From the NCBI GenBank assembly GCA_016183535.1, contig JACPEK010000004.1, positions 141,807 to 205,806 of the forward strand: 64,000 nucleotides of DNA, written 5' to 3'. Positions within the stretch are counted from its first letter, which is position 1, and each line of letters starts with the position of its first letter. The notes beneath the pieces were generated by a model, which saw only the letters and a program-made list of their open reading frames with translations, did no database searches and was not told where the DNA came from. Of this stretch, positions 18,129 through 37,518 are shown in pieces. A program made the translations under genes and the position numbers. The DNA comes from Candidatus Brennerbacteria bacterium (GTDB lineage Bacteria; Patescibacteriota; Minisyncoccia; UBA6257; GWB1-50-10).

Positions 18129-18140
18129 AAATCTGCGAGG

Positions 18141-19922: not shown

Positions 19923-19963
19923 ATTTGTTGTACGGTTATATGGTAATTGTGTTCCCGCATATC

Positions 19964-20911
19964 ATGAATAAAGTAAAATATTTGATCACGGGAGGAACGG
20001 GTTTTGTGGGAGCGAATTTCATTCGAACGTTCGTTGCGCGCGGGGATGAGGTGTATGTCACGGTACGGTCCCACTCAAACCCATGGCGCCTTTCCGATAT
20101 CAAAGATCGTGTTCATTTCTGTGAGGTAAATCTTGAAGAAGAGGCGGAAGTGGCCCGCGTAGTAAGGTTGGTCGCTCCCGAGGTTATCCTCCATTTTGCA
20201 ACGTACGGAGGATCCCAAGGGCGCGAGCAGGATGTTCGAACGACCATAGCGATGAATGTGCTCGGCACCATTAACCTTATGCGCGCTTCGGTGGAAACGG
20301 GGTTCTCGTGTTTCATAAACACCGGCACCTCCTCCGAATATGGCGAGAAGGACCATCCTATGTGTGAGAACGAGCTTCCCGAACCTAATAACCTCTACGG
20401 CGTCACGAAAGCCGCCGCAACCATGTTCGGGCGTTTTTTAGGTAGGAAGCACAACCTTTCTCTCGTTACCATGCGTCTCTTCTCGGTGTATGGATACTAC
20501 GAAGATCCTAGACGGTTGGTGCCGGTGGTGATAAAGGCGTGTTTGAAGAACGGCGAGCTCGCTCTTGCGTCCTCCTCTTTCGTGCGCGATTTTGTCTTTA
20601 TCGAAGACGTGATCGGAGCATATGATGCCGCGATAGCCCACCGTGAAGATATCAAGGGCGAGGTGTTCAACGTGGGTACCGGAATGCAGCGCACACTTGG
20701 CGATGTGGTGACGATCGTGAAACGCGTCACTGGTGCGACTATCGAGCCGTCGTACGGAGCCGCTACGCCCGTTCAGCACGAACCCGCGATGTGGACCGCA
20801 AACGTCTCGAAGATCAAGCGGATGCTCGGCTGGGAACCGGAATATTCGTTGGAGGATGGGATAGCGAAGAATGTGGAATGGTTCAAACAGAATCCTTCGC
20901 TGTATCAATGA
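19964..20911 (+). CDS. NAD-dependent epimerase/dehydratase (extended SDR)
   Basis: Contains YLITGGTGFVGANFI and YGVTKAAATMF (YxxxK). The ATG at 19964 is preferred, since the upstream extension overlaps the antisense ORF. Confidence 0.85.
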   Translation: MNKVKYLITGGTGFVGANFIRTFVARGDEVYVTVRSHSNPWRLSDIKDRVHFCEVNLEEEAEVARVVRLVAPEVILHFATYGGSQGREQDVRTTIAMNVLGTINLMRASVETGFSCFINTGTSSEYGEKDHPMCENELPEPNNLYGVTKAAATMFGRFLGRKHNLSLVTMRLFSVYGYYEDPRRLVPVVIKACLKNGELALASSSFVRDFVFIEDVIGAYDAAIAHREDIKGEVFNVGTGMQRTLGDVVTIVKRVTGATIEPSYGAATPVQHEPAMWTANVSKIKRMLGWEPEYSLEDGIAKNVEWFKQNPSLYQ

Positions 20912-21738
20912 AAGTTTCGCACTCTCCAACTACCCACCAACTGCAAAGTGTCGCGCGTACCGTGCGGCAGTTGGTTTTGGATATGGTGACGCAGAGCAAA
21001 AGCGCTCACCTCGGGAGCAGTTTCTCTGTAGTGGATATCCTCGTCGCACTCTATTTCAATGCGATGAGGGTCTTCCTGAAAAATCCGAAGCATCCAAATC
21101 GGGATCGTCTTCTTTTGAGTAAGGGCCATGCGGGTGCCGCTCTCTATGCTGTGCTGGGTGTGCGAGAGTTTTTCAATGTGAAACTGCTCAAAAAATATCT
21201 TCGGAACGGAACCGCACTTGCGGGACACGCGAGTCAAGCCGCGGTTCCCGGCGTTGAACTTTTTACCGGCTCATTGGGTCATGGTCTTCCGATTGGGACG
21301 GGGATGGCGTTCGCGGGGAAACTCGATAAGAAATCATACCGGGTGTTCGTGGTGATGAGTGACGGAGAATGTGACGAAGGGTCCAACTGGGAAGCCATCC
21401 TTTTCGCGGGGCACCATCAACTGGATAATCTTGTGGCGGTGGTGGATTACAACAAGTGGCAGTCGTTCGGGCGGACTAAGGACATTCTGGACCTCGAACC
21501 GTTCGCGAAGAAATGGAGGGATTTCGGTTGGAATGTAAAAGAGTGCAATGGGCACGATTTTAAGGCGCTCACGAAGGCATTCGCCAAAATCCCGTTCGCA
21601 AAAGGAAAGCCAAGCGTGCTCATCGCCCATACCGTGAAAGGGAGGGGACTTCCCTACGAAAACGAGCTTCGCTCGCACTATAATTCTCCCACCGAGGAAG
21701 AATATCGGTTGGCGAAAGAGCGCATCAAGCATCTATGA
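20908..21738 (+). CDS. Transketolase, N-terminal (ThDP pyrophosphate-binding) subunit, pair 1
   Basis: Contains SKGHAGAALYAV and GSLGHGLPIGTGMA, plus the ThDP/Mg motif VMSDGECDEGSNWEA. The start overlaps the upstream stop (ATGA). Confidence 0.9.
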   Translation: MKVSHSPTTHQLQSVARTVRQLVLDMVTQSKSAHLGSSFSVVDILVALYFNAMRVFLKNPKHPNRDRLLLSKGHAGAALYAVLGVREFFNVKLLKKYLRNGTALAGHASQAAVPGVELFTGSLGHGLPIGTGMAFAGKLDKKSYRVFVVMSDGECDEGSNWEAILFAGHHQLDNLVAVVDYNKWQSFGRTKDILDLEPFAKKWRDFGWNVKECNGHDFKALTKAFAKIPFAKGKPSVLIAHTVKGRGLPYENELRSHYNSPTEEEYRLAKERIKHL

Positions 21739-22664
21739 GAATAGCCTTTATGAAGGCGCTCACGCGTCTTGTAAAAAAAGACAAGCGGGTAATGCTTCTC
21801 ACCGGAGACCTTGGATTCTCGGTCTTTGAGGACTTTGCGCGTCAGTTCCCAAAACAATACCTCAACTGTGGGCTCGCCGAGCAGAATATGGTGGGCATGG
21901 CGGCGGGGCTCGCGTTGAGCGGCAAAAAAGTGTTTGCGTACTCCATCGTCCCCTTTGCAACAATGCGACCATTCGAGCAGGTTCGTGACGATGTGTGTCT
22001 CCACAATCTGGACGTAAAAATAGTGGGAGTAGGCGGTGGGTATAGCTATAGTCAGCTCGGCGCGACGCACCACTCCATCGAAGACATCGCCATCATGAAG
22101 GTGCTGCCGAACATGAAAGTGTTGGTTCCTGCCGACCCCATAGAAACGGAGTTGGCGGTGAAAGCGATGGCGCGCGACCGCGGTCCGGCGTATCTTCGTT
22201 TGGGTAAGAGCAAGGAAGAAAATTTGCACCGCAGAACCTTTCCGTTCGCGATCGGACGATCCAATGTTCTGCGGAAAGGAAGCTCTGTGACCGTCATAGG
22301 ATGCGGTCCGATCCTCAAAAATGTGCTGCGGGCGGCGGAGATCCTGGCGAGGAAGAACATATTCTGCAAGGTCATTTCCATGCCGACCGTGAAACCATTG
22401 GACGAACGCGTGGTCATGAGCGCGACGAAGACCGGACTTGTTATCACTGTGGAGGAGCACAGCGTGATTGGCGGACTGGGGGATTCAGTGGCATCTGTGC
22501 TAGCCCAAGCGGCTCTTCCTAAGAAATGTCGACTCAAAAAAATCGGTGTCGAGGACCGGTTTATGAAGATCGTGGGTGACCAGGAATATTTAAGGTCACA
22601 AAATGGCCTTTCTCCGGAACAGATCGCGAGGTCAATAACTTCACTGATTAAAAAAAGAAGTTAG
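21735..22664 (+). CDS. Transketolase, C-terminal (pyrimidine-binding + C-terminal domain) subunit, pair 1
   Basis: Contains LTGDLGFSVF...GLAEQNMVGMAAGLA and EEHSVIGGLGDSV. Confidence 0.9.
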   Translation: MRIAFMKALTRLVKKDKRVMLLTGDLGFSVFEDFARQFPKQYLNCGLAEQNMVGMAAGLALSGKKVFAYSIVPFATMRPFEQVRDDVCLHNLDVKIVGVGGGYSYSQLGATHHSIEDIAIMKVLPNMKVLVPADPIETELAVKAMARDRGPAYLRLGKSKEENLHRRTFPFAIGRSNVLRKGSSVTVIGCGPILKNVLRAAEILARKNIFCKVISMPTVKPLDERVVMSATKTGLVITVEEHSVIGGLGDSVASVLAQAALPKKCRLKKIGVEDRFMKIVGDQEYLRSQNGLSPEQIARSITSLIKKRS

Positions 22665-23825: not shown

Positions 23826-24764
23826 ATGAAAGAACACCATATTTTCAGTCCTGATGATTTTTCCTCGGCCATAGGTGAGCCCTTAAGCGAGCGGGTGAAG
23901 AGTAAGATAGAGGAGTTGAATATCGAGTATGCACGGATGACACCGCAGGAGAGGGATGAATGCATTAAAACCAGCGTGAAGATACTACTGGACCCGGAAT
24001 TCGACGCGTCCGGAGCGCACCGGTTGGGCAAGTGGGAAAAGGGATGGTCAGAAAACCTGCAGGCATTCCGAGAGAGGGGGAAGGGGGGCCTTGTGCCGGG
24101 CTACTTTTCTGCCACCCGCGATTTGGTCAAGTGGGGAAAGTGGAAGCAAGAGTATATCCGCCCCCTTCAGGGAAACCTCGACTATAAGTTTCTCTCCATA
24201 ATTTTGGAGTGGCTTTTTGAGAAATATATTCCTGCCGCGAGCTCCGTGTACGAGTTTGGGTGCGGCACGGGCCACCACCTTCTGAAGGTGCGGGAATTCA
24301 ACCCGGAAGCAAAGATCTACGGCTTGGATTGGGCCGAAGCGTCCCAGGAGATTATCAAAGAAATGGTTGCAAAAGATGTAGCCAAGAATACCTACGGAAA
24401 GAAATTTGATTTTTTTAATCCCGACGAATCGTTCGCGCTCGACGCCAACAGTGTGGTGTATACCGTAGGCGCTTTAGAGCAGGTTGGAGAAAAACATGAG
24501 AAGTTCATCGCGTATTTGCTCAAGAACAGGCCTAAAATATGTTTCCATGTGGAGCCGATTGGGGAACTGTTGGACGATTCAAATCGCACGGATTTTCTTA
24601 CCCAATCGTACTACCGGAAGAGAAACTATCTCTCGAATTTTGTGAACCACCTCAAGGCGCTGGAGAAAGAGGGGAAAATAAAGATTGAAAAAGCACAAAG
24701 GACCTATTTGGGAGGGAGCTTGCTCACGGAGTATGCGGTGGTCATGTGGAGTCCGGTGGCATAG
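23826..24764 (+). CDS. Class I SAM-dependent methyltransferase
   Basis: Motif I reads VYEFGCGTGHHLL, followed by GLDWAE. Confidence 0.7.
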   Translation: MKEHHIFSPDDFSSAIGEPLSERVKSKIEELNIEYARMTPQERDECIKTSVKILLDPEFDASGAHRLGKWEKGWSENLQAFRERGKGGLVPGYFSATRDLVKWGKWKQEYIRPLQGNLDYKFLSIILEWLFEKYIPAASSVYEFGCGTGHHLLKVREFNPEAKIYGLDWAEASQEIIKEMVAKDVAKNTYGKKFDFFNPDESFALDANSVVYTVGALEQVGEKHEKFIAYLLKNRPKICFHVEPIGELLDDSNRTDFLTQSYYRKRNYLSNFVNHLKALEKEGKIKIEKAQRTYLGGSLLTEYAVVMWSPVA

Positions 24765-24766
24765 CT

Positions 24767-25735
24767 ATGAATTACCGGACATTAGGCGCTACTGGCATTT
24801 CGGTTTCCGAGATAGGTTTTGGCACGTGGGGAATCGGCGGGCTCACCGAGGGCGCCACCTCGTACGGCGAGACCGACGACGCGGTGTCGCTTCGCGCGCT
24901 CGCGCGGGCCCTCGAACTCGGCATGAATTTTTACGACACCTCGAACATCTACGGCCACGAGGGGCACGCGGAGGCACTTCTTGGGGAGGCATTTGGTAAC
25001 CAACGCGAAAGAGTTGTGCTTGCGACAAAAGTCGGATGTGTAAAGCACGGAGGGCCATACGACGTGTCACCGTCCTATATCCGTAGCTGCCTCGAAGCAA
25101 GCCTGCGCCGCCTCAAAACTGACTACGTCGACGTGTACCAACTTCATAGCGTGCCGCTTGAACTTGTGCGGGAGACCCCCGAATGTTTTGCAACATTGAG
25201 AGAGCTAAAGAAGGAAGGAAAGATCCGCGCGATCGGATATTCGGTGAAAAACCCCTCCGATGCCAAGACGGCGATAGAAGAATTCGGCGTGGATGTAGTG
25301 CAACTAAACTTCAACATGATGGACCAGCGCGCGCTTACCGAAGGAATCTTTGATGTGGCCCGTGTGCGCGGCGTTGGCATCATCGTACGGACACCCTTCG
25401 CCTTCGGATTCCTTACCGGAAAAGTCACCGACACTCAGTTCGATTCTCGGGACCATCGTTCCGTGTGGTCGCCGGCACAACTCGCGCGATGGAGGGAGTC
25501 CCCGAACGTTTTTTCCCCGGTGAACGATAAGGGCATCTATACTCCCGCGCAGTTCGCGCTGAAGTTCTGCGTCGCGTTTCCGGAGGTGTCCACGGTGGTC
25601 GCGGGCATGCTCACGGAAACCCAGGCGGAGGAGAACGCGACGGCGAGCGATCTCCCTCCGCTCACCGCCGCACAGCTCGCGGCGATCCGAAAGATCAGAG
25701 AGGTGAACACGTTTTTCGTAAGCGAAAAGAAATAA
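24767..25735 (+). CDS. Aldo/keto reductase family oxidoreductase
   Basis: Contains YRTLGATGISVSEIGFGTW, NFYDTSNIYG and IRAIGYS (AKR catalytic tetrad context). Confidence 0.85.
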   Translation: MNYRTLGATGISVSEIGFGTWGIGGLTEGATSYGETDDAVSLRALARALELGMNFYDTSNIYGHEGHAEALLGEAFGNQRERVVLATKVGCVKHGGPYDVSPSYIRSCLEASLRRLKTDYVDVYQLHSVPLELVRETPECFATLRELKKEGKIRAIGYSVKNPSDAKTAIEEFGVDVVQLNFNMMDQRALTEGIFDVARVRGVGIIVRTPFAFGFLTGKVTDTQFDSRDHRSVWSPAQLARWRESPNVFSPVNDKGIYTPAQFALKFCVAFPEVSTVVAGMLTETQAEENATASDLPPLTAAQLAAIRKIREVNTFFVSEKK

Positions 25736-25825
25736 CCCGCGTAGCCGTCAGTGATTGTCAAGGCAAGAATATTGGTATATAACCAAGGCAAAAGACATTA
25801 CACAATCATAAAGAGACCTCATTCT

Positions 25826-26347
25826 ATGGAAGCACATAAAACGACACTGGACGGCGTATTGCTCATACGGCCCGACTCTCCCATCCACGAGGATTTTCGA
25901 GGCAGGTACGTGACCGCGTACCGCAAAGCCGAGTTCGAAAAGATGGGCATTAACGTGGAGTTTGTGAACGAAAGCTACTCCACCTCTTCAAAGGGGGTGC
26001 TTCGCGGCATCCATGCAGAGACGGATAATTGGAAGCTCATCTCCTGCAGGCGCGGGTGCTTCTACTTGGTGGTGGTCGTGTGCGACGAGCAGTCGAAAGA
26101 TTTCGGAAAATGGGAGTCATTCACGCTCACCGAGCATAATGCGCTCCAAGTGCTCATACCTCCGGGATTCGGGAACGCCCATCTCGCCTTGAGCGACGAC
26201 ATTATGTTTCACTACTTGCAATCCAACTATTTCGATCCCGCCCGTCAGACCACGTACCGCTACGATGACCCGAGGTTCGCCATCTGGTGGCCGATAAAAA
26301 ATCCACTTCTTTCTCCGCGCGATGAAGCGGGGAAGTATGTGGAATGA
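25826..26347 (+). CDS. NDP-4-keto-6-deoxy-sugar 3,5-epimerase (RfbC-like cupin)
   Basis: Contains DFRGRY, SKGVLRGIHAE, LISCRRGCFYLVVV and IPPGFGNAHLALSDD, matching the RfbC signature pattern. Confidence 0.85.
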   Translation: MEAHKTTLDGVLLIRPDSPIHEDFRGRYVTAYRKAEFEKMGINVEFVNESYSTSSKGVLRGIHAETDNWKLISCRRGCFYLVVVVCDEQSKDFGKWESFTLTEHNALQVLIPPGFGNAHLALSDDIMFHYLQSNYFDPARQTTYRYDDPRFAIWWPIKNPLLSPRDEAGKYVE

Positions 26348-26466: not shown

Positions 26467-27261
26467 ATGGAGAACTTAGCGGCAATAGCGAAGCAGTGCC
26501 GGCAGAAGGTTCTGGAAATGGCATATGCCGCGAAGGATTCGCACATCGGATGTGCGCTATCTTCCGTGGACGTGTTGGTCCTGCTTTTCTTTCGTGTGAT
26601 GAACGTAAATCCCGAAGACCCGCGTTTTTCCGAAAGGGATCGGTTCATTTTGAGCAAGGGGCACGCGGCAGCGGCACTCTATGCGGTCATGTCCGCGCGC
26701 GGATTTTTCCCCCGGGAAGCGCTCGCAACCTTCGCACAGAACGGAAGTGAACTCGCGAGCCATGTGGAACGGAAGCTTCCTGGCGTGGAGACCAATGGCG
26801 GCTCCGGCGGGCACGGACTTTCGATTGGTGCCGGTATGGCGCTTGCCGCACAGGCGGACGGCGCGAACTATCGCATCTTCATTCTCATGGGAGACGGGGA
26901 ATTGCAGGAAGGGTCTGTGTGGGAAGCGGCAATGTTCGCCTCATCGCGCAACCTTAGCAACCTCACCCTTATCGTGGACCGGAACGGGTTCCAAACGTGG
27001 AACAAGGTGGACGATATCGTCGCCGTAGAATCCCTTGTGGAGAAATTCAGGGCGTTCGGGTGGGATGCGGACGAGGTTAACGGTCACGATTTCGAACGGC
27101 TCGGCAGCGTCATCGAACGAACGGGCGACCGTCCACATGCCATCATTGCACGCACCGTGAAAGGGAAAGGTGTTTCTTTCATGGAAGGTGATGGCGTCTG
27201 GCACTCCAAATCGATGTCGGACGAACACTATCATCGTGCTATGAAGGAGGTGCAATCATGA
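26467..27261 (+). CDS. Transketolase, N-terminal subunit, pair 2 (paralog of 20908-21738)
   Basis: Contains SKGHAAAALYAV, GSGGHGLSIGAGMA and ILMGDGELQEGSVWEA. Confidence 0.9.
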   Translation: MENLAAIAKQCRQKVLEMAYAAKDSHIGCALSSVDVLVLLFFRVMNVNPEDPRFSERDRFILSKGHAAAALYAVMSARGFFPREALATFAQNGSELASHVERKLPGVETNGGSGGHGLSIGAGMALAAQADGANYRIFILMGDGELQEGSVWEAAMFASSRNLSNLTLIVDRNGFQTWNKVDDIVAVESLVEKFRAFGWDADEVNGHDFERLGSVIERTGDRPHAIIARTVKGKGVSFMEGDGVWHSKSMSDEHYHRAMKEVQS

Positions 27262-28166
27262 GAACCGCTTTCGTGGAAACACTCTATGAAGAGGCTCTTC
27301 GTGACCCACGTATCTTCTTCATCACCAGCGATTTTTGGCATGTGAAGGAGGAGGAATTCCGGGCTCTCGGAGCGCGATACCAGAATGGCGGCATGGCCGA
27401 ACAAAACATTATCAGCCTTGCAGTTGGCGCCGCACTCTCAGGGAAGAAGGTTTTTGTGTATTCCATCGTTCCTTTCATCACGCTCCGTTGCATCGAGCAG
27501 GTAAAAGTGGACGTGTGTTCACACGAAGCCGATGTCACCATCGTTGGTGGCGGAGCCGGTTTCACGTACGGAACATGCGGCATAACCCACCTTGCGATCG
27601 AGGACATTGCAATGATGCGCTCACTTCCCCACATGAGAATAATCTCACCTTCAGGATCGGCGGAAGCAAGCGCCCTCTTACGAGAGACCATTCGACTTGG
27701 GGGGCCGACTTACTTTCGCCTCAATATGAGGGAAGATGGTGATCTCACGAGCATGAAGCCCGAAGTAGGAAAGGGAATGATTGTTCGGGAAGGCGTGGAC
27801 GTATGCATCATCGCTACTGGGACCATTCTCGCGGAAGCATTCGGCGTTGCGGACATGCTCGCGGAGAAGGGGATTTCCGTTGAAGTGGTCAACATGCACA
27901 CGATCAAACCTCTCGATGAGGGCCTTGTTCGGGAGCGTGTGCGGTCCCGTCGCGCTGTTTGTACTCTTGAAGAGCACAGCATCATCGGAGGACTTGGTGG
28001 TGCGGTAGCGGAGGTGTTCGCGGAGTCCGGCGGTACGGCCCGATTCAGGCGTTTCGGCATCAAGGATGCATGGCCGACCGTAGTGGGGAGCCAGAAATAT
28101 CTGCGCACCGTGACCGGTATTTCCCAGGAATACCTTGCGGTCGCGATAGAGAAGCTCCTTCAGTAG
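27258..28166 (+). CDS. Transketolase, C-terminal subunit, pair 2
   Basis: Contains GGMAEQNIISLAVGAA and EEHSIIGGLGGAV. Confidence 0.9.
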   Translation: MRTAFVETLYEEALRDPRIFFITSDFWHVKEEEFRALGARYQNGGMAEQNIISLAVGAALSGKKVFVYSIVPFITLRCIEQVKVDVCSHEADVTIVGGGAGFTYGTCGITHLAIEDIAMMRSLPHMRIISPSGSAEASALLRETIRLGGPTYFRLNMREDGDLTSMKPEVGKGMIVREGVDVCIIATGTILAEAFGVADMLAEKGISVEVVNMHTIKPLDEGLVRERVRSRRAVCTLEEHSIIGGLGGAVAEVFAESGGTARFRRFGIKDAWPTVVGSQKYLRTVTGISQEYLAVAIEKLLQ

Positions 28167-28299: not shown

Positions 28300-29124
28300 A
28301 TGACCATGAAAAACGCAGCGGAAAAGGACCTCGCCGGTCGCGTCGCGCTCATCACGGGAGGCAGTAAGGGCATTGGGAAGACGATAGCCCTGACCCTCGC
28401 GCGGCGAGGCGCCGACATCGTTATCTGCGGCCGAGGCGCATCTGCTCTGGAAACGGCGGCGGAAGAGATACGCGCGTGCGGTTCGACCGTGCATGCCCAC
28501 CCACTTGACGCTACAAAGCTCGAGGGAGTGCGGGATTTTTTTCGCAAGGTTATCGAACCCATTGGACGCCTTGATATTCTCGTGAACAATATCGGGGGAG
28601 TGCGAGAAGTCGCGAAATTTCCCGATCTCACCGATGATGACTGGTACGGAATCTTCGATACCAATCTCATGACCATGGTGCGTGTCACGCGGGAAGCGCT
28701 CAGTTACCTCACAAAATCTCCGTATGCCCGCATCATCAACATTGCGAGCGTGGCAGGGAAACAGCCCGGCGACTGGAACCCTCACTACGGCGCGGTAAAA
28801 GCGGCGATGATCCACCTCTCTAAATCGCTTTCGCGCACCTTGGGACCGGAACACGTGCGGGTAAACGCGATTTGCTCCAGCACCATTAAGGGCGAAGGCG
28901 CGTGGAAGCGGGACGTTGAGAGTAGGATGCGGAGTGGGAACGTCTCGTTTGAGGAAGCGGAGCGCGTACTGGAAGCGGAAGTAAGAGCAAAAGCGCCGCT
29001 CGGAGAGATAGGTACTCCTGCGGATGTCGCGGAACTCGTTGCATTTCTTGCATCGAATCAAGCTTGCTTCATCACCGGCACCTGCATCGAGGTTGATGGT
29101 GGGACGGTTCGATCCATCTTTTAG
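28300..29124 (+). CDS. Short-chain dehydrogenase/reductase (classical SDR, 3-oxoacyl-ACP reductase-like)
   Basis: Contains ALITGGSKGIGK (TGxxxGxG), NNIG and YGAVKAA (YxxxK). Confidence 0.85.
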   Translation: MTMKNAAEKDLAGRVALITGGSKGIGKTIALTLARRGADIVICGRGASALETAAEEIRACGSTVHAHPLDATKLEGVRDFFRKVIEPIGRLDILVNNIGGVREVAKFPDLTDDDWYGIFDTNLMTMVRVTREALSYLTKSPYARIINIASVAGKQPGDWNPHYGAVKAAMIHLSKSLSRTLGPEHVRVNAICSSTIKGEGAWKRDVESRMRSGNVSFEEAERVLEAEVRAKAPLGEIGTPADVAELVAFLASNQACFITGTCIEVDGGTVRSIF

Positions 29125-29267: not shown

Positions 29268-31259
29268 ATGAGAACCACAGAGCTTGTGGTAGGGCTGGTG
29301 CAGATCAACAACGGCTACACCGGCCAGTATTATCTCCCGTACTCGGTGGCGATGCTCGAAGCATATGCGAGGAAGAATCTTTCCCGACCGGATCGGTATC
29401 GTTTTCTCGTCCCTATTTATCGCAGGGAGCCGGTCGCGGATGCGGTGGCGAAGTTGCTCGGTGCGGATATCGTAGGGTTCAGCATCTATGTGTGGAACGA
29501 GCAGCTAAGCCTTGCGATCGCGCGAGAACTGAAAAGGCAAAAGCCCGAAGTGCTCGTGGTGTTCGGAGGTCCCCAGGTTCCGGATAACCCGGAGCGTTTC
29601 ATGGAAGAGAACCCCTTCATTGATATCGCGTGTCATGGCGAAGGCGAGAGGGTATTTTGCGCTCTTCTTGAACGATGGGAAGATAAAGAACATATCCCCG
29701 CCATCAGTTATCGGTACAACGGACAGCTCGTGCGGAACCCGCGTTTACCGCGCGTGGAGAACCTAAACGAATTTCCATCCCCATATTTGGACGGGGTTCT
29801 TGATCCTCTCATGCGCGAGAATCCCAACGGGAAATGGAACGCCATTTGGGAAACAAACCGTGGATGCCCCTTCAGTTGCACGTTTTGCGACTGGGGTTCC
29901 GCGGTCAATGCCACGAAGGTGAGGAAATGGGAAGAGGAACGGCTTTTCCGCGAGATAGATTGGTTCGCGGAGCATAAGGTCGATTTCATCTTCGGCGCCG
30001 ATGCCAATTTCGGCATCTTCGAACGTGATATTGGTATCGCAGAGCGTCTTGCGGATTCAAGGCGAAGAACCGGTTTTCCCCGTGCATTCAGCGTTTCAAG
30101 CACCAAGAATGCCACGGAAAGGTCCTTTGCGGCACAGAAAATACTTTCTGACGCCGGATTGAATACTGGTGTAACCGTTTCCATGCAATCCATGGACGTG
30201 GGAACGCTCGTGGCGATCAAGCGGGACAACATTCAGTTGGAGGGCCCAAAGGGTTTCAAGGAACTTCAGCGGAAATTCACGCTTGCAGGAATCCAAACCT
30301 CAACTGATCTCGTCCTGGGATTGCCGGGAGAGACGTACGAATCGTTCGTGCGCGGCGTGAGCGATCTTATCGCGAACGGCCAGCATAATCGCATTCTATT
30401 CTTCAACCTGACCGTCCTTCCGAACGCCGAAATGGGCGATCCGGAATACCAGAAGAAGTACGGGATGGAAACGGTGGAAACGCGCATCATCACGATCCAT
30501 GGCAATCTTCACGATAAGGAAGACGAGGTCGCGGAGTTACAACAGCTGGTGGTCGCGACGAGTACGATGCCGCGAGAGGATTGGGTGCGAGTACGTGCAC
30601 TTTCCTGGATGACTGCGTTTCTGCACTTCGACAAGGTGCTCCAGATTCCGCTTGTGGTCATACATGAGATGACCGGCATTGATTACCGGACGCTCATCGA
30701 GCTATTCTCGGAAGGCTGTTTTGGAAGCGAAGAAGAATTTCCAACCCTTTCCAAGATTCGGAAATTCTTCATTAAGAAGGCCGAGGAGATCCAGGGTGGA
30801 GCGGAGGAGTTCTGTCGTGCGCCCCAGTGGCTTGATCTGTGGTGGCCGACCGATGAGTATATGCTCATCGAACTGGCGACCAGCGGCAATCGCCTCGCGT
30901 TCTATGAGGAAGCCGAACGGGCACTCTCAGTATTTTTGATGGAGAGAGGGATGGGAAGCTGTTGCGGGGTATTGCGCGAAGCGGTCTATCTGAACGAAAG
31001 GATGTTCAAGATGCCGTTTCAGAACGAAAATCGTCGCGTGGAGCTCTCCCATAATCTATGGGAATTCTATTACACTGCGATCTGTGGCAAGCCCATTCCA
31101 TTGGAAGAGAGGGAAACGGTCGTTACCGTTGACTGCACCACCGAACGGTGGGATTCATGGGATGGCTGGTGCCGGTTCGCGGTGTGGTATGCGAGCCATC
31201 CCGGCGCATTCTTCTTTGGTATTACCCCCGACAAGAAGCAGATTGCGGGGCATTGGTAG
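29268..31259 (+). CDS. Cobalamin (B12)-binding-domain radical SAM enzyme (class B rSAM), 663 aa
   Basis: N-terminal B12-binding-like domain with VVFGGPQV. Radical SAM cluster motif CPFSCTFCDW (CxxxCxxC). Long C-terminal extension. Confidence 0.85.
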   Translation: MRTTELVVGLVQINNGYTGQYYLPYSVAMLEAYARKNLSRPDRYRFLVPIYRREPVADAVAKLLGADIVGFSIYVWNEQLSLAIARELKRQKPEVLVVFGGPQVPDNPERFMEENPFIDIACHGEGERVFCALLERWEDKEHIPAISYRYNGQLVRNPRLPRVENLNEFPSPYLDGVLDPLMRENPNGKWNAIWETNRGCPFSCTFCDWGSAVNATKVRKWEEERLFREIDWFAEHKVDFIFGADANFGIFERDIGIAERLADSRRRTGFPRAFSVSSTKNATERSFAAQKILSDAGLNTGVTVSMQSMDVGTLVAIKRDNIQLEGPKGFKELQRKFTLAGIQTSTDLVLGLPGETYESFVRGVSDLIANGQHNRILFFNLTVLPNAEMGDPEYQKKYGMETVETRIITIHGNLHDKEDEVAELQQLVVATSTMPREDWVRVRALSWMTAFLHFDKVLQIPLVVIHEMTGIDYRTLIELFSEGCFGSEEEFPTLSKIRKFFIKKAEEIQGGAEEFCRAPQWLDLWWPTDEYMLIELATSGNRLAFYEEAERALSVFLMERGMGSCCGVLREAVYLNERMFKMPFQNENRRVELSHNLWEFYYTAICGKPIPLEERETVVTVDCTTERWDSWDGWCRFAVWYASHPGAFFFGITPDKKQIAGHW

Positions 31260-31393: not shown

Positions 31394-33382
31394 ATGGAAA
31401 AGGAGAAGATAGTCATCGGGCTGGTGCAGGTGAACAGCGGATTCTCCGGCCAGCATTACTTCCCGTATTCCGTGGGAGTGCTCCAAGCGTATGCGAAGGA
31501 GCATCTCCCCGGAGTGGAACGTATCGATTTTTTGCTCCCCGTCTACCGCCGCATTCGTGTGGCGGAAGCGGCGGAACAGCTGGAAGGTGCGGACATCGTG
31601 GCATTCAGCACGTATGTCTGGAACATCCGTTTATCACTGGCCATAGCCGCAGAGCTGAAACGGCGCAGACCGAAAACGCTCATCGTGTTCGGTGGGCCGC
31701 AAGTACCGCGTCATGATCGCCCATGGGAAGTCAAAGCGTTCCTCACGAAGAACCCCCAGATTGATGTCGCGATCCATGGCGCAGGCGAAGAGCCGTTCTT
31801 GGGAATTCTCACGCACGGACTCGGGGGAAATTGGGAGCGCATCCCTTCCGCAAGTTTTTTACGTGACACCATGCTTCAACAGAACGCTCCCGCGACCTCG
31901 CTTTCTGATCTTTCCAAAGTCCCTTCCCCATATCTGAGAGGCGTTTTTGATCCGCTCATCGCGGCGAACCCTTCGGAGCGATGGATCGTGCTTTGGGAGA
32001 CCGATCGTAATTGCCCGTTCAGCTGCACGTTTTGTGGCTGGGGACTGCTTGAAAATAAACCCACCGTGTGGCCGATGGACCGTGTCATGAAAGAGGTCGA
32101 CTGGTTCGCGGAACATGAGATTAATTTTGTGTTCTGCGCCAATGCAAACTTTTTTCTGACAAAGCGTGATTTGGAAATTGCGCGCTATGTGGCCGAGACG
32201 AAACTGAAGAGAGGTTTCCCGAGGTTTCTTTCGGTGCAGGACGCAAAGAACTCCGTGGAGCGCGTGTTTGAGGGCAGGATGGTGATGGAGAAAGCGGGAT
32301 TGAACACCGGAGTGGTTATTTCGCTCCAGGCGGTAGATCCTGAAACGCTTCGCATTATTCGACGTAATAACATCAAACTCGACGCGTATCAGGAAGTTCA
32401 ACGGAAGTTCCGCGCGAACGGCATCGAGACCATGACCGACCTCATTCTTCCTTTGGCGGGACAAACGTACCCGAGCTTTGCGAACGGAGTTTCCGAGGTC
32501 ATCGACCACGGCCAGCACAACAGGATTCAGTTCAATTTGTGTTGTTCGGTTCCTGATGCCGAGATGTCCCACCGTGATTATATGGCGCAATACGGTCTTG
32601 AAACGGTAACGACGAAGATGGTCAACATCCATGGCAAGGTCGAAAATGAAGAGGTTCCCGAAACCCAGGACCTCATTATTGCGACTGCGGCCATGCCGAG
32701 AGAGGATTGGGTGCGTGCACGCGCGTTCAGTTGGATGGTGGGACTTCTGCATTTCGACAAACTCCTGCAGATTCCTATTGTGCTCATCCGAAAGCTCGCG
32801 AACGCGAGCTACCGGGAGATCGTAGAATTTTTCTCCGAAGGCCAATTTGGTTCTCGGGAAGCATTTCCCAGCCTGACCAGGATCCGCGAGTTTTTCCTCG
32901 AGAAAGCTCGTGATATCCAGAACGGCGGGACCGAGTACGTTCATTCGAAGGAATGGCTCGACATCTACTGGCCTGCTGACGAGTTCATCTTTATTGAGCT
33001 CGCCATCAAAGGAAAACTCGAGGAGTTCTATGTTGAAGCGGAACTGGCGTTGAAGCGTTTTCTGGAACAGCGGGAAGTTTCCATCCAGGGGAAATTGCTT
33101 CGCGACGCATTTCGTCTCAACCAGAGCTTGCTGAAGCAACCATTCCAAACGCGGGATGTGACCGTGGATCTCACCTACAATGTGTGGGAATTCTACCGTG
33201 GTGTGATGGATGGGAGGGAGGTTCCAATCGAGGAAGGGAAATTCCAGTATCACATTGATCGCACTAGCGTTCGATGGGAGACATGGGAGACCTGGTGCCG
33301 CGAGGTGGTGTGGTTCGGTAACAAGCGCGGCGCATATCTCTACGGGAACATTCCTGTCGAGCAGATCGCCGGACACTACTAA
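31394..33382 (+). CDS. Cobalamin (B12)-binding-domain radical SAM enzyme, paralog of 29268-31259 (662 aa)
   Basis: Contains IVFGGPQV and CPFSCTFCGW (CxxxCxxC). Colinear with gene 1 at roughly 50% identity by eye. Confidence 0.85.
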   Translation: MEKEKIVIGLVQVNSGFSGQHYFPYSVGVLQAYAKEHLPGVERIDFLLPVYRRIRVAEAAEQLEGADIVAFSTYVWNIRLSLAIAAELKRRRPKTLIVFGGPQVPRHDRPWEVKAFLTKNPQIDVAIHGAGEEPFLGILTHGLGGNWERIPSASFLRDTMLQQNAPATSLSDLSKVPSPYLRGVFDPLIAANPSERWIVLWETDRNCPFSCTFCGWGLLENKPTVWPMDRVMKEVDWFAEHEINFVFCANANFFLTKRDLEIARYVAETKLKRGFPRFLSVQDAKNSVERVFEGRMVMEKAGLNTGVVISLQAVDPETLRIIRRNNIKLDAYQEVQRKFRANGIETMTDLILPLAGQTYPSFANGVSEVIDHGQHNRIQFNLCCSVPDAEMSHRDYMAQYGLETVTTKMVNIHGKVENEEVPETQDLIIATAAMPREDWVRARAFSWMVGLLHFDKLLQIPIVLIRKLANASYREIVEFFSEGQFGSREAFPSLTRIREFFLEKARDIQNGGTEYVHSKEWLDIYWPADEFIFIELAIKGKLEEFYVEAELALKRFLEQREVSIQGKLLRDAFRLNQSLLKQPFQTRDVTVDLTYNVWEFYRGVMDGREVPIEEGKFQYHIDRTSVRWETWETWCREVVWFGNKRGAYLYGNIPVEQIAGHY

Positions 33383-33386
33383 CGTG

Positions 33387-33418
33387 AAAAGAGGCGTTGT
33401 AAAACGCCTCTTTTTTAT
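33387..33418 (+). terminator. Rho-independent terminator after radical SAM gene 2
   Basis: aagaggcgtt-gtaa-aacgcctctt followed by ttttttatt. Confidence 0.6.
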
Positions 33419-33458
33419 TGCAAATTTCGACTCAATCATTTACGATACCAAAGCATTT

Positions 33459-34451
33459 ATGATCCTTACACGAACGCCCTACCGCATCTCGTTCTTCGGC
33501 GGTGGGACCGACTATCCGGCGTGGTTCGAAAACTTCGGCACCGGCGCCGTACTTTCCACCACTATCGACAAATATTGCTATCTGGCATGCCGTTTTTTGC
33601 CGCCTTTCTTCGAGCACAAGAGCAGGATCGTGTGGTCGAAGATAGAAGTGGTGAATCACCACGACGATATCGAACATCCGACCGCGCGCGAAGCGCTCAA
33701 GCTTCTCGACGTTAAAGACGGCGTGGAGATACACCACTATGGCGACTTGCCCGCGCGGAGCGGCATGGGATCCAGCTCGGCCTTTGCGGTGGGACTACTC
33801 CACGCCTTAAATGTGCTCCACGGACGTCCCGTCACTAAAAAGCAGCTCGCGATGGATTCGATCCATATCGAGCAGGAACGGCTGGGACATAGCGTGGGGT
33901 GCCAGGACCAGACTGCGGCGGCGTACGGAGGGTTCAATCGCATAACCTTCGGAGGATCCGAGAAGATCAACGTCCGTCCCGTCACCGCCTCTCCGGAAAC
34001 CAAAGAGGTGCTTCAAGAGCGGCTCCTCATGTTCTTCACGGGTCTCTCACGGGACGCGTTCGAGGTAGCGGAGCAACAAGTTCGCGTGACCGGTCAAAAA
34101 AAAGAAGAACTCACAAAAATGCTCTCTTTGGTGGACCAAGCGGAAAAAATTCTACAGGAAACCCCGCACCACATTGATGAATTCGGCAGACTTCTTCATG
34201 AAACCTGGACGCTCAAAAGGAGTTTGACAGATGTGATCTCCAATTCTCGGATTGATGACATCTATGAGCGTGCTCGCGCGGCGGGTGCGCTCGGCGGTAA
34301 GTTGTTGGGAGCGGGAGGTGGAGGATTTTTATTGTTGTATGTGAAGCCGGAGGAACAAGAAACCGTGAAGAGCGCACTCAAAGATCTTTTACATGTGCCG
34401 TTTTCATTCGAGAATGAGGGTACTAAACTTATATATCAAGACGGTTCGTAG
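33459..34451 (+). CDS. GHMP-family sugar kinase (D-glycero-D-manno-heptose 7-phosphate kinase HddA-like)
   Basis: N-terminus reads MILTRTPYRISFFGGGTDYP. GHMP ATP motif reads PARSGMGSSSAFAVG. ATG at 33459, since the longer ORF overlaps the upstream gene and terminator. Confidence 0.8.
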   Translation: MILTRTPYRISFFGGGTDYPAWFENFGTGAVLSTTIDKYCYLACRFLPPFFEHKSRIVWSKIEVVNHHDDIEHPTAREALKLLDVKDGVEIHHYGDLPARSGMGSSSAFAVGLLHALNVLHGRPVTKKQLAMDSIHIEQERLGHSVGCQDQTAAAYGGFNRITFGGSEKINVRPVTASPETKEVLQERLLMFFTGLSRDAFEVAEQQVRVTGQKKEELTKMLSLVDQAEKILQETPHHIDEFGRLLHETWTLKRSLTDVISNSRIDDIYERARAAGALGGKLLGAGGGGFLLLYVKPEEQETVKSALKDLLHVPFSFENEGTKLIYQDGS

Positions 34452-34453
34452 CA

Positions 34454-35506
34454 ATGAGTAACGTCGTACGCATTATGACCATCCTTATTACTGGAAATCG
34501 TGGGTATATCGGACCTATTCTCGTCGAAATGCTCTTAGCGAAAGGGTATGAGGTGGTAGGTTATGATGCCGGCTATTACGCTGGCAATGAGCTCTACACA
34601 ACCAAGAACGAAATAAAACAAATCACAAAAGACGTAAGAGAAATCAAGGAAGAAGATCTGAACGGCGTTGATGTGGTCATACATCTGGCGGGGCTTAGCA
34701 CCGATCCGCTGGGGGAATTAGACGAACGCCTCACCGAGGAGATTAATTTTAGAGCGACTATCAAACTTGCAAGACTTGCAAGAAGCGCGGGAGTTAAGCG
34801 TTTTGTGTATGCTTCTTCCCAGAGCATGTACGGAGTGGCGGACACCGATTACGAGTTGGATGAAGATGCGCCAAAAAATCCCGTTACGGCCTATGCCCGC
34901 ACCAAATGGGAGGCGGAGCAAGAATTGGGAAAGCTCGATAGTGATGATTTTACAGTGACGTCGTTCAGGCCTTCAACGGTGTTCGGTCCGAGCCCAAACT
35001 TGAGGTGTGATATTGTATTTAATAGTCTTGTGGCGTCGGCGTATACCACCGGCAACATTGAGATCAAAAGTGACGGCACTCCGTGGAGGCCCGTGGTTCA
35101 CATCAAGGACGTTTCAAGGGCTTTTATCGCGGGCATAGAAGCTCCGCGGGAGTTGGTGGGAGGCCAATCCTTCAACGTCGGCATTCCGAACGGGAATTAT
35201 ACCGTGAGGGAACTTGCGGAGGCCGCACAGCGCGCGGTTCCCGGGAGCAAGTTGAAATTCACAGGCGAACACGGCCCCGACTCGAGGACGTACCGAGTCT
35301 CATTCAAAAAGATACTCTCGGTTCTTAAAGATTATTACAAGCCGGAGTGGGATTTAGATAAAGGAGGGGAGGAGCTTATAGCTTTCTTCAAGCGAGTGAA
35401 TTTCACTGAGGCGCAATTTCGAGGAAGACCGGCGATACGCCTTGAGCAGATCAAATATCTTTTGCGTGGAAAGAAATTAGACGAGAATTTGTTATGGCGC
35501 ACGTAA
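34454..35506 (+). CDS. NAD-dependent epimerase/dehydratase family protein (extended SDR)
   Basis: Contains ILITGNRGYIGP and YARTKWEAE (YxxxK). Confidence 0.8.
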   Translation: MSNVVRIMTILITGNRGYIGPILVEMLLAKGYEVVGYDAGYYAGNELYTTKNEIKQITKDVREIKEEDLNGVDVVIHLAGLSTDPLGELDERLTEEINFRATIKLARLARSAGVKRFVYASSQSMYGVADTDYELDEDAPKNPVTAYARTKWEAEQELGKLDSDDFTVTSFRPSTVFGPSPNLRCDIVFNSLVASAYTTGNIEIKSDGTPWRPVVHIKDVSRAFIAGIEAPRELVGGQSFNVGIPNGNYTVRELAEAAQRAVPGSKLKFTGEHGPDSRTYRVSFKKILSVLKDYYKPEWDLDKGGEELIAFFKRVNFTEAQFRGRPAIRLEQIKYLLRGKKLDENLLWRT

Positions 35507-36240
35507 CTCGTATTACTCAAGCGGTTATACTTGCGGGAGGCGCAGGAACCCGTCTCAAACCCCTCACCGATCACACGCCAAAGCCGATGATACTCATGAA
35601 CGGCAAGCCCTTTCTTGAGTATTTAATTAAACAATTAAAGGAAAACGGTATTGAAGAAGTTCTCCTCCTTCTCGGCTACTTACCGGAGAAAACCATTGCT
35701 CATTTTGGAGATGGAGCGAAGTTTGGTGTGAGAATAAAATATTCCGTCACCCCCGTGGAAGACAGCATTGGCACGCGTATCCGAAAGGCGGCTGATCTTA
35801 TGGAGGACTATTTTATCCTCTTGAACTGTGACAACTTCTGGCCTCTTCGCATCGAGGAATTGGTGAAGTTTCACAATAAAATGAATTCTCTCATAACTAC
35901 GGTCGTATATACCAACAAGAATGGCATCACAAAGAACAATGTATTGGTGGATGACGAAGGATATATTGTGCGGTTTGATCCGTCCCGTACCGATCCGGAT
36001 TTGAACGGAGTGAATCTTGTATACGCCATTACCAGTAAGGAAGTGATTGGTCTTATGCCGACAGGAGATTTTGACTATGAGAAGGTAATGTTTCCCATGC
36101 TCATTGCCCAACGCAAACTCGCGGGATATCGGAGCGATGAGCGACATCATAGTATTGGAAGCTTGGAACGTCTCCCCGGGACCGAACAGTTTTTGAAAAC
36201 GCTCGATGAAAAAAATAAAAACGAAAGCAATCTTTCTTGA
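35494..36240 (+). CDS. Sugar-1-phosphate nucleotidyltransferase (HddC / mannose-1-P guanylyltransferase-like)
   Basis: Contains AVILAGGAGTRLKPLTDHTPKPM (the G-x-G-T-R-L motif of NTP-transferases). About 248 aa. Confidence 0.8.
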   Translation: MAHVTRITQAVILAGGAGTRLKPLTDHTPKPMILMNGKPFLEYLIKQLKENGIEEVLLLLGYLPEKTIAHFGDGAKFGVRIKYSVTPVEDSIGTRIRKAADLMEDYFILLNCDNFWPLRIEELVKFHNKMNSLITTVVYTNKNGITKNNVLVDDEGYIVRFDPSRTDPDLNGVNLVYAITSKEVIGLMPTGDFDYEKVMFPMLIAQRKLAGYRSDERHHSIGSLERLPGTEQFLKTLDEKNKNESNLS

Positions 36241-36784
36241 TAGGGACGGTACAATCGTTCGTCACACGAAAAAATTTATTGTTCGCGCTTCCCAACTACG
36301 TCTTCTCGCGGGCGTTCCGGAGGCACTCCGGGCGTTCAATGAAATGGGTTTCTTAGCCGTCCTTATTACGAATCAACCGGTTATCTCTCGCGGTCTTATA
36401 ACGCCGCGCGGCATGGAGAAACTCCACGCTTCTCTTTTTGAGAGACTTAAACGTCGTGGTGCGCGTATTGATGCCGCATACGTATGTCCCCACCATCCCG
36501 ACGGGAAAATTCCTCCTTACGGCAGAAAATGTCGTTGCAGAAAACCGGAGCCCGGGATGATTTTACAGGCGATAAAAGATATGAATATAGATCCAAGAAA
36601 AAGCTTTATGATAGGCGACGCGTTGATAGATATAGTGACAGGAAAGAAGGCGCACACGCGCACTATTTTGGTAAAAACCGGACCGGGCCATTCACGCTTA
36701 GATAAATTTTACCAACGCACCAAGCCGAATTTTGTCGCAAAAAACCTCCTTGTCGCCGCAAGGATAGTTAAAAAAGTGAAATAA
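36206..36784 (+). CDS. gmhB: D,D-heptose 1,7-bisphosphate phosphatase (HAD-IIIA, GmhB-like)
   Basis: Contains AIFLDRDGTIV (the DxDGT motif). The Zn-binding insert reads CPHHPDGKIPPYGRKCRCRKP. Also contains MIGDALIDI. Confidence 0.85.
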   Translation: MKKIKTKAIFLDRDGTIVRHTKKFIVRASQLRLLAGVPEALRAFNEMGFLAVLITNQPVISRGLITPRGMEKLHASLFERLKRRGARIDAAYVCPHHPDGKIPPYGRKCRCRKPEPGMILQAIKDMNIDPRKSFMIGDALIDIVTGKKAHTRTILVKTGPGHSRLDKFYQRTKPNFVAKNLLVAARIVKKVK

Positions 36785-36831: not shown

Positions 36832-37518
36832 ATGAAGATCGCAGATCATAACTCGCTAATGAGCGAACTCGATTCGTGGGTTCGCGAGATGGGGAACGGC
36901 GAATATATTCCACAAGAAGATTCCCGCGCCGCTACGAATTCCGGCCTTTTGCCAGATTACGGTATTCAGCAGGTTCGTGAGGAAATTTCCGAGTTCTCAA
37001 AGTTTCTCATCAATCGTGGTAAAAATGGGAGCATTTTAGAAATAGGGTTAGGATACTTCGGGAGCACCCACTTTCTATGGAGATTACTATTCGATCGAGT
37101 GGCCACGGTGGAGAGCAACCATAGCCGCTTCCTTACATTCGGGAAAAATACTCGCGAGTATTATAAAAAATGGATTTTGGACGACGGAAAAAGTTCCTTC
37201 TTTGGGGGATTTTCGAGCGAGCCTTCCATCATCGAGCGGGTATACAAATCCTTCAAAGAGGGGATCGACGTGCTCTTCATAGATGCCGACCATAGTTATG
37301 GTGGTATTCTCTCGGATTGGTTGATATATGCTCCGCTTGTGAAATCCGGCGGCATCGTTGCTTTTCACGATCTTGAATTGGATTACGATCATGATAGGGG
37401 ACCGAAAGGATTTTTTGAGGATTTGGAGAGCGGGAACGTCGTCCCAGGAAAGCAGTTCAAACTTGAGAGGATCCTTCATTCGAAATACCACGGTATCGGA
37501 TTTTATGTGAAGGAATGA
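36832..37518 (+). CDS. Class I SAM-dependent methyltransferase (Methyltransf_24 / cephalosporin-hydroxylase-like O-MT fold)
   Basis: Contains ILEIGLGYFGST and DVLFIDADHSYGGILSDWLIYAPLVKSGGIVAFHD. Confidence 0.65.
   Translation: MKIADHNSLMSELDSWVREMGNGEYIPQEDSRAATNSGLLPDYGIQQVREEISEFSKFLINRGKNGSILEIGLGYFGSTHFLWRLLFDRVATVESNHSRFLTFGKNTREYYKKWILDDGKSSFFGGFSSEPSIIERVYKSFKEGIDVLFIDADHSYGGILSDWLIYAPLVKSGGIVAFHDLELDYDHDRGPKGFFEDLESGNVVPGKQFKLERILHSKYHGIGFYVKE

Follow-up and report, generated by a model that had tools for sequence, protein, structure and literature searches.

A divergent HddA/GmhB-type kinase, nucleotidyltransferase and phosphatase module without GmhA in a 64-kb window of a Candidatus Brennerbacteria contig

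A stretch of 64,000 nucleotides from a contig assigned to Candidatus Brennerbacteria bacterium (JACPEK010000004.1, positions 141,807 to 205,806, assembly GCA_016183535.1; hereafter the window) contains, at its positions 33459-36784, four plus-strand genes which encode, in this order, a GHMP-type sugar kinase, a short-chain dehydrogenase/reductase (SDR), a sugar-1-phosphate nucleotidyltransferase (NTase) and a GmhB-type phosphatase. All of these features were confirmed at these positions. In an earlier note on this DNA, the kinase, phosphatase and NTase were proposed to be a module of the HddA-GmhB-HddC type, for which the isomerase GmhA is missing from the window. The question raised by this locus is whether such a module makes a nucleotide-activated heptose and, if so, where its sugar phosphate comes from. 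Our analysis indicates that the four genes probably encode the activating steps of an alpha-type nucleotide-heptose pathway and the first step of its tailoring, with GmhA being provided from outside the window, and to this reading we assign a probability of about 0.6. The module belongs to a known pathway, of which it is a divergent variant, and does not constitute a new type of system.

The four-gene block and its assignment

The four genes follow each other with intergenic spacings of +2, -13 and -35 nt and they therefore form one operon with translational coupling. All of them are intact, with every catalytic motif present, and the E-values for the family matches of their products are far beyond chance.

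The kinase begins with the sequence MILTRTPYRISFFGGGTDYP. Its start codon (ATG at 33459) corresponds to residue 84 of a longer open reading frame (ORF) that was called mechanically at 33210-34451, and this start agrees with the N-termini of 19 homologues; the protein is 100% identical to the NCBI entry MBI2278865.1. It contains the Pfam domains GHMP_kinases_N and GHMP_kinases_C, and when the NCBIfam hidden Markov models (HMMs) were ranked, HddA was the best match with 142.3 bits, followed by fucokinase with 90. Similarly, the solved structures related most closely to it are those of Campylobacter jejuni HddA (4n3o, E = 2.7e-37), 3k85 and Burkholderia pseudomallei WcbL (4usk). Two of its residues, R9 and D150, do not vary within its clade; they are part of the motifs P-x-R and G-x-QDQ, which could be aligned with C. 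jejuni HddA. The catalytic residues of WcbL are R13 and D163 (PMC4691232), the comparison with the window kinase being made by way of C. jejuni HddA and not by a direct alignment to WcbL. The earlier description of this protein as an HddA-like kinase is thus well founded.

The phosphatase carries the motifs FLDRDGT, TNQ, CPH-12-CRCRKP and GDALID, and contains the sequence CPHHPDGKIPPYGRKCRCRKP. Its best matches are GmhB models and the E. coli GmhB structure (3l8e, E = 1.5e-29). The spacing of 12 residues in the zinc cap is that of the long-cap GmhB proteins, in contrast to the 5–6 residues that are found in HisB-N (PMC9798254). The earlier recognition of this protein as a GmhB, which was based upon its DxDGT motif and zinc insert, therefore stands.

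The NTase, which is identical to NCBI MBI2278867.1, contains the expected motif (VILAGGAGTRL, of which LAGGAGTRL was pointed out previously in a protein of this length), but a specific grouping with HddC was not observed. The best model for this protein is mannose-1-phosphate guanylyltransferase (110 bits), followed by MurU (93), AglF (90) and HddC (82, with a cut-off of 300), and Y. pseudotuberculosis HddC (5xhw) was matched with only 52 bits. On these scores, guanosine diphosphate (GDP) is no more than a candidate for the nucleotide. The link of this protein to the pathway comes from its relatives (52–59% identical), which are overwhelmingly fusions of ~395 amino acids (aa) to a GmhB-like HAD domain (NTase::GmhB); such Rosetta-stone proteins indicate that the NTase takes the product of the bisphosphate phosphatase. 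In the window, the genes for the two proteins overlap by 35 nt (36206-36240). A frameshift error at a run of seven A residues (36209-36215), where the deletion of one A would fuse the two frames, was considered as a cause of their separation and rejected. In the closest relative of this NTase (locus L091) the two genes are also split and no A run is present, and the split therefore appears natural.

Between the kinase and the NTase, where an epimerase had been noted earlier, an SDR is present. This protein has a single outlying solved relative (6vo6/6vo8), which it matches with 129 bits and ~36% identity over 300 residues, in comparison to 84 bits for the next match. We take 6vo6 to be C. jejuni Cj1427/MlghA, a GDP-heptose C4-dehydrogenase, in keeping with the molecule name given by its depositor. 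In Cj1427/MlghA a tightly bound NADH is recycled by alpha-ketoglutarate and C4 of GDP-heptose is oxidised (PMC10680097, PMC7949155). The suggested comparison of the SDR with Campylobacter enzymes thus points to Cj1427, and the protein is probably a nucleoside diphosphate (NDP)-heptose C4-dehydrogenase of the Cj1427/MlghA type. Its identity to the SDRs of the related loci L091, L089 and L090 is 80%, 70% and 68%, respectively, and in L089 and L090 the SDR gene adjoins a gene for a GmhA-like SIS protein.

The association with SIS genes is part of a wider pattern among the relatives of the kinase. The members of its clade are 50–76% identical to the window kinase and only ~30% to the characterised HddA, and they are present in Patescibacteria, Omnitrophota, Acidobacteriota, Nitrospirota, Proteobacteria and archaea; a scan of metagenomes for closer kinase relatives found none with >62% identity. 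A total of 86 loci were scored with HMMs based upon the window proteins and SIS genes, and the counts given here are from the 50 well-flanked ones, in which 7 kb or more was available on each side. The neighbours of the kinase in these loci include an NTase (41/50), an RmlB-like SDR (40/50), a transketolase-like C subunit (29/50), a DegT-family protein (27/50), a B12-binding radical S-adenosylmethionine (SAM) protein (22/50), a GmhA-like SIS protein (20/50) and a GmhB-like HAD protein (15/50). In a neighbour-joining tree of the kinases, the loci with and without SIS are interspersed, which argues for one kinase function, with the isomerase being encoded sometimes in cis and sometimes in trans.

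Individual loci contain the module in more complete form. In L003, a clade kinase (58% identical to that of the window) is followed by an NTase for which HddC is the best model (151 bits), a SIS protein with phosphoheptose isomerase (201 bits) and gmhA (187 bits) as its best models, and a GmhB that exceeds its equivalog cut-off (190 bits, cut-off 178). The gene order in L089, which is from Parcubacteria, is kinase-SIS-SDR-NTase::GmhB, i.e. the order of the window plus the isomerase, and in L090 it is NTase::GmhB-x-SIS-SDR. The SIS proteins of the L089/L090 family are named D-sedoheptulose 7-phosphate isomerase by both JGI and NCBI. In L091 the order is classical SDR-radical SAM-kinase-SDR-NTase-GmhB without any SIS gene, and in addition to the SDR its kinase (71.5% identity), NTase (67%) and GmhB (65%) resemble those of the window.

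For the pathway as a whole, we infer the substrate, the nucleotide and the order of the steps as follows. A heptose-7-phosphate-type sugar would be phosphorylated at C1 by the kinase, its distal phosphate would be removed by the GmhB-type phosphatase, and the resulting sugar-1-phosphate would be coupled to a nucleoside triphosphate by the NTase. The Cj1427-like SDR would then oxidise C4 of the NDP-heptose, giving rise to a 4-keto intermediate that could be diversified by the RmlC-like epimerase, RfbH-like 3-dehydrase, SDR reductases, thiamine diphosphate (ThDP)-dependent enzymes, B12-radical-SAM proteins and O-methyltransferases, and the resulting sugars would be used by glycosyltransferases. 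The sedoheptulose-7-phosphate isomerase (GmhA) that is needed before the kinase would be supplied in trans.

The missing isomerase and alternative explanations

When the six frames of the window were searched by tblastn with three SIS/GmhA proteins (two SIS proteins from one related locus and an E. coli GmhA sequence), nothing was found below E = 0.5. Similarly, no SIS protein was detected in the window by an HMM based upon these three seeds and 32 SIS ORFs recovered from related loci, and the same model, which detects the SIS genes of L089 and L090, found none in L087, a sequence that covers ~4.5 kb past the 3' end of the window. Within the window, no other isomerase-like candidates were identified. 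The module thus lacks GmhA over the entire window, as had been noted previously. The four-gene order without SIS is shared with L091, which argues that this arrangement is a conserved state, kept in a small lineage, from which the isomerase is precisely missing, and not an accident of assembly. It is most likely that GmhA is encoded elsewhere in the genome. The location of a step outside the cluster is known from the C. jejuni capsule locus, which does not contain GmhB and borrows Cj1152 from the lipooligosaccharide locus (PMC10680097).

A number of observations weigh against a heptose pathway with GmhA supplied in trans. No GmhA is found anywhere in the 64 kb, and there is no SIS gene within 10 kb of the module in its three closest relatives (L091, L005, and L006). 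The host is labelled as a Parcubacteria-type bacterium of the candidate phyla radiation (CPR), and would thus be without a lipopolysaccharide (LPS)-core heptose pathway from which GmhA could be borrowed. Additionally, no Brennerbacteria protein is present among the 120 best matches to the GmhA-like protein of L089, a result which is weak and uninformative. All four proteins of the block also score below the curated NCBI equivalog cut-offs. For the kinase, the score with the HddA model is 142.3 bits in comparison to a cut-off of 600 (clade kinases in complete cassettes are likewise under this value, that of L003 having 147 bits), the NTase is under the cut-off for HddC, and the phosphatase narrowly misses GmhB (149.6/178) and TIGR00213 (128/149.6) while passing the HAD-IIIA domain models. 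Divergence also extends to the SIS proteins of L089 (115/276) and L090 (105/209). Lastly, the kinase clade is also found without NTase, SIS or HAD genes, as in T4-like phage contigs, and the 4,6-dehydratase of the surrounding island is of the RmlB type and not of the GMD type that is used on GDP-heptose. We consider it unlikely that the isomerase is genuinely missing and that the kinase clade marks an undescribed route to a nucleotide-activated higher or branched sugar, which proceeds via hexose phosphate or ThDP/radical-SAM chemistry instead of GmhA.

Among the specific alternatives, entry by a hexose would require the kinase to act on mannose-6-phosphate or glucose-6-phosphate, GmhB to remove the 6-phosphate of the 1,6-bisphosphate and the NTase to produce an NDP-hexose, in a phosphomutase-independent manner and without GmhA, with extra carbons being added later by the B12-radical-SAM C-methyltransferases or the ThDP enzymes. 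We regard this as improbable. Although it accounts for the exact absence of SIS from the window, L091, L005, and L006, and is consistent with the relationship of the dehydratase and 3-dehydrase to hexose enzymes (RmlB, 237 bits; RfbH, 395.5 bits with a cut-off of 423), with mannose-1-phosphate guanylyltransferase as the best NTase model, with the very frequent location of a radical-SAM gene immediately before the kinase gene and with the binding of D-mannose in the sugar pocket of WcbL (PMC4691232), the kinase clade and the SDR/NTase::GmhB family are found next to genes for GmhA-like SIS proteins in numerous genomes, loci with and without SIS are interspersed in the kinase tree, and the best solved relative of the SDR is a heptose-specific enzyme.

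The possibility that the precursor is made within the cluster involves two pairs of transketolase-like ThDP enzymes, which in the earlier note were suggested to supply sedoheptulose-7-phosphate. In the C subunit of the characterised split transketolase of Carboxydothermus hydrogenoformans (ChTK-C) the relevant sequences are THAGLTVGEDGASHQ and IRLGRSG, the corresponding ones being GGGYSYSQLGATHH and LRLGKSK in pair 1 and GGAGFTYGTCGITHL and FRLNMRE in pair 2. Hence, the His and Asp of the ChTK motif H-A-G...E-D-G-x-S-H-Q are replaced by G and L in pair 1 and by G and C in pair 2, and the Arg of IRLGRSG is replaced by Lys and Met, respectively; the canonical-looking transketolase of L003 retains all three of these residues. 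They presumably correspond to H461, D469 and R520 of E. coli transketolase, which bind the substrate phosphate and C2-hydroxyl, and the Asp is also kept in DXS. Due to the absence of these residues both pairs are unlikely to make sedoheptulose-7-phosphate, and the suggestion was not borne out; a ketose-to-aldose isomerase would still be needed even with a true transketolase. The replacements argue against sugar-phosphate acceptors and fit ketone acceptors such as NDP-4-ketosugars, which the two pairs may branch or extend.

It has also to be considered that these ThDP enzymes, together with the aldo-keto reductase and the classical SDR of the island (acting as a polyol-type ketose-to-aldose system) and/or the radical-SAM proteins, produce a non-canonical higher-carbon sugar phosphate that would enter at the kinase without GmhA, which in our view is very doubtful. 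Such a scheme would be similar in its logic to the lincosamide octose route, in which a transaldolase is employed. The same residue replacements are against it, no isomerase-like candidate is present in the window, and genes for the aldo-keto reductase, classical SDR, radical-SAM and transketolase-like proteins are also found in SIS-bearing loci (L015, L039, L012, and L009). In its favour are the frequencies of the transketolase-like C subunit and the B12-radical-SAM protein in the well-flanked loci (see above), the co-occurrence of the aldo-keto reductase and classical SDR in them (Fisher p = 0.002) and a weak negative association with SIS (p = 0.05 for the classical SDR, and 0.05–0.12 for the bypass by aldo-keto reductase and classical SDR, uncorrected for multiple tests). 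Additionally, in the Wolfebacteria locus L001 (8001-12332) the genes downstream of the kinase and NTase, where SIS and GmhB are expected, encode an AP_endonuc_2 protein (a xylose-isomerase-like TIM barrel), an aminotransferase and a Cof-type HAD protein, which may mean that non-orthologous proteins have replaced the isomerase and the phosphatase.

Least probable of all is that the parts do not cooperate, with the kinase serving the radical-SAM/ThDP pathway upstream and the SDR-NTase-GmhB genes being an inactive or repurposed remnant of a SIS cassette, for although the kinase is 69–76% identical to its nearest relatives (e.g. those of L005, L006, and L091) and the NTase and GmhB only 25–30% to those of L005/L006, relatives of the SDR, NTase and GmhB at 55–70% identity are paired with a different kinase subclade (38–42% identical), and phage operons contain the kinase without NTase, HAD or SIS genes, the four-gene order is kept in the independent genome L091 with 65–80% identity for each gene and the window genes overlap or abut and are fully intact in their motifs.

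The surrounding glycan island

The module is located in a glycan island of ~38 kb (10098-48805), which has a GC content of 46–55% in comparison to 57–65% for the flanking housekeeping DNA, suggesting horizontal acquisition and a mosaic origin; the lowest values inside the island (46–50%) are at 34–44 kb. The flanks encode ClpB, HtrA, signal peptidase, HisRS, FtsA and FtsZ as well as many ORFs without a Pfam match. On the plus strand of the island (10098-42442) there are genes for a Wzy_C protein, GT4 and GT2 glycosyltransferases, several methyltransferases, the RmlB-type dehydratase, RfbH-like dehydrase, SDRs, both transketolase-like pairs, the aldo-keto reductase, the RmlC-like cupin and two KedN5-family B12-radical-SAM proteins, and on the minus strand those for an oxidoreductase-like protein, an asparagine-synthase homologue, a Wzx flippase and an initiating sugar transferase. 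The NTase of the four-gene block is the only nucleotidyltransferase in the whole of the island, and the tailoring enzymes thus plausibly depend on the four-gene module. The features discussed here are listed in Table 1.

Table 1. Positions of the module and of other features of the island in the window.
Feature	Position	Strand	Basis or remark
ORF of 189 aa at the start of the island	11661-12230		No Pfam match at a threshold as lenient as E = 0.01; gene also called in the independent assembly L088
RmlB-type NDP-sugar 4,6-dehydratase	17061-18128	+	Solved matches
RfbH/E1-like 3-dehydrase, dependent on pyridoxamine phosphate (PMP)	18141-19397	+	395.5 bits, cut-off 423
NUDIX protein, between the RfbH-like and SDR genes	19371-19922	-	Kept in L005 and L006 (28–35% identity)
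Extended SDR, candidate C4-reductase	19964-20911	+	GalE/RmlB-like matches
ThDP pair 1, transketolase-like N and C subunits	20791-22664	+	Family match; true N start probably after 20911
Aldo-keto reductase	24746-25735	+	Family match
RmlC-like cupin, 3- or 3,5-epimerase; probable downstream tailoring enzyme	25751-26347	+	Solved matches
ThDP pair 2, transketolase-like N and C subunits	26467-28166	+	Family match and alignment; without the canonical His/Asp/Arg
Classical SDR (FabG/glucose-1-dehydrogenase-like)	28300-29124	+	Shares 57% identity with the SDR that precedes the L091 module
Two KedN5-family B12-binding radical-SAM proteins, 663 and 662 aa	29268-33382 (29268-31259, 31394-33382)	+	Directly upstream of the kinase
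HddA/WcbL-type GHMP sugar-phosphate 1-kinase, 330 aa	33459-34451	+	HMM models, Pfam, solved relatives, homologue N-termini
Extended SDR, probably Cj1427/MlghA-like NDP-heptose C4-dehydrogenase, 350 aa	34454-35506	+	Solved relatives and synteny
Sugar-1-phosphate nucleotidyltransferase, 248 aa	35494-36240	+	NTP_transferase fold, VILAGGAGTRL
GmhB-type HAD-IIIA sugar-bisphosphate phosphatase, 192 aa, CxH-12-CxC zinc cap	36206-36784	+	HMM models, E. coli GmhB
CmcI/rhamnosyl-O-methyltransferase-like methyltransferase	36832-37518	+	Kept beside the module in L005 and L006

The tailoring enzymes of the island were also likened in the earlier note to those that modify GDP-heptose in Campylobacter. Apart from the Cj1427-like oxidase, for which this comparison held, the results were divided. 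The cupin is compatible with it, as the C. jejuni heptose 3-/3,5-epimerases (DdahB/MlghB and the GDP-heptose epimerases of Raushel/Holden) were the top matches with 99 bits, RmlC being close at 95; the structure codes of DdahB/MlghB were confirmed (PMC7949155). The dehydratase does not agree, its match to the dTDP-glucose dehydratases (237 bits) being far above that to the C. jejuni GDP-heptose 4,6-dehydratase (7us5, 78 bits). The extended SDR at 19964 resembles GalE/RmlB-like SDRs, and no specific heptose reductase ranked on top.

The presence of a B12-radical-SAM gene immediately 5' of the kinase is recurrent in many of the related loci, and the relationship of these proteins to the KedN5 C-methyltransferase family suggests C-methylation of a sugar. 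A NUDIX gene is also present in L089, and the product of the window gene may serve quality control by hydrolysing NDP-sugars. A conserved protein of ~185 aa in L005 and L006 was considered as a divergent isomerase and rejected, the window homologue being this NUDIX protein.

Two complete kinase-NTase-SIS-HAD cassettes, one with a kinase of the window's clade and the other more HddA-like, are present in each of L003 (117-11059, a metagenomic contig) and L011 (a Saccharibacteria chromosome); they may represent parallel heptose pathways that differ in anomer or nucleotide. In L003 a PfkB HldA-like kinase is also located beside the canonical-looking split transketolase. A different conserved kinase operon is shared by the metagenomic T4-like phage contigs L097-L113 (e.g. 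L105, 7380-13102), consisting of a B12-radical-SAM protein, small ThDP alpha (199 aa) and beta (176 aa) proteins, an HddA-like kinase, a DegT aminotransferase and an SDR. The kinase of these contigs is 41–45% identical to that of the window, with no NTase, SIS or HAD gene within 10 kb, and the neighbours of the L105 operon include genes for the Gp23 capsid protein, T4 scaffold protein, UvsW and gp46/47-like proteins. Among isolated phages in a GenBank collection, no homologue with >37% identity was found.

Outside the island, a tRNA-Asn gene (61372-61446, plus strand) abuts a large serine recombinase gene (61432-63060, minus strand), the 3' end of which it overlaps slightly. The GC content drops to 42% from ~62 kb onwards, and the ORFs further downstream (L087) are without Pfam matches; an element is probably integrated at tRNA-Asn near 61372-63060. 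A tRNA-Lys gene is present at 60143-60218 (minus strand). The GC content of the contig is 58%, whereas other metagenome-assembled genomes named Brennerbacteria carry 41–44 in their names; if these numbers are GC percentages, as we have taken them to be, the Brennerbacteria label is doubtful.

Comparison with known systems and significance

The module resembles the GmhA/HddA/GmhB/HddC pathway in that a GHMP anomeric kinase, a HAD-IIIA phosphatase with a zinc cap and an NTP_transferase are encoded in one operon, with HddA and GmhB being the best family matches for two of them. It differs from it in the absence of GmhA from the window, in scores below the equivalog level with ~30–40% identity to the characterised enzymes, in an NTase that is not specifically HddC-like and is of a family usually fused to GmhB, and in a host that is labelled as a CPR bacterium without LPS. 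To the Mlgh pathway of C. jejuni HS:2, in which Cj1427/MlghA (C4-dehydrogenase) is followed by MlghB (3,5-epimerase) and MlghC (C4-reductase), it is linked by the Cj1427-like SDR embedded in the activation operon, by the RmlC-like cupin for which heptose epimerases are on top, and by several candidate SDR reductases and O-methyltransferases. However, the SDR is only ~36% identical to Cj1427, and the RmlB-type dehydratase, RfbH/E1-like dehydrase, two ThDP pairs and two B12-radical-SAM enzymes of the island are not part of the Campylobacter pathways.

A module of this kind is not restricted to C7 sugars. In the lincosamide octose pathway (LmbR/LmbN/LmbP/LmbK/LmbO) an isomerase, an HddA-like kinase, a GmhB-like phosphatase and an NTase are used; unlike the window, this pathway employs a transaldolase and retains the SIS isomerase LmbN, and the likeness drawn here is one of pathway logic. 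Branching of NDP-4-ketosugars by ThDP enzymes is known for YerE (in yersiniose synthesis), AviB1/B2 and AlmDI/DII. The setting of ThDP pair 1 of the window is similar, with a 4,6-dehydratase, an E1-like 3-dehydrase and an SDR reductase as its neighbours (17061-22664), and it suggests the addition of a two-carbon branch to a 3,6-dideoxy-4-keto sugar. YerE is acetolactate-synthase-like, whereas the window enzymes are split and transketolase/DXS-like. In literature searches, nothing was found that combines a transketolase with HddA/GmhB, or a GHMP kinase with radical SAM and transketolase.

If NDP-heptose is indeed made by this module, a reduced CPR bacterium without LPS would be devoting ~38 kb to a surface glycan that is based on heptose and extensively tailored, which would bear upon how CPR episymbionts present themselves to their hosts and phages. 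The requirement for GmhA, in turn, bears upon whether the logic of kinase, phosphatase and NTase was re-used for a new precursor. The comparative data define a widespread clade of HddA-like kinases, a family of NTase::GmhB fusions and a recurrent partnership of B12-radical-SAM proteins with atypical ThDP enzymes, none of which has a characterised member. The most interesting lead is this wider pattern, in which the kinase clade is associated with B12-radical-SAM, atypical ThDP and DegT proteins across different phyla and in T4-like phage contigs.

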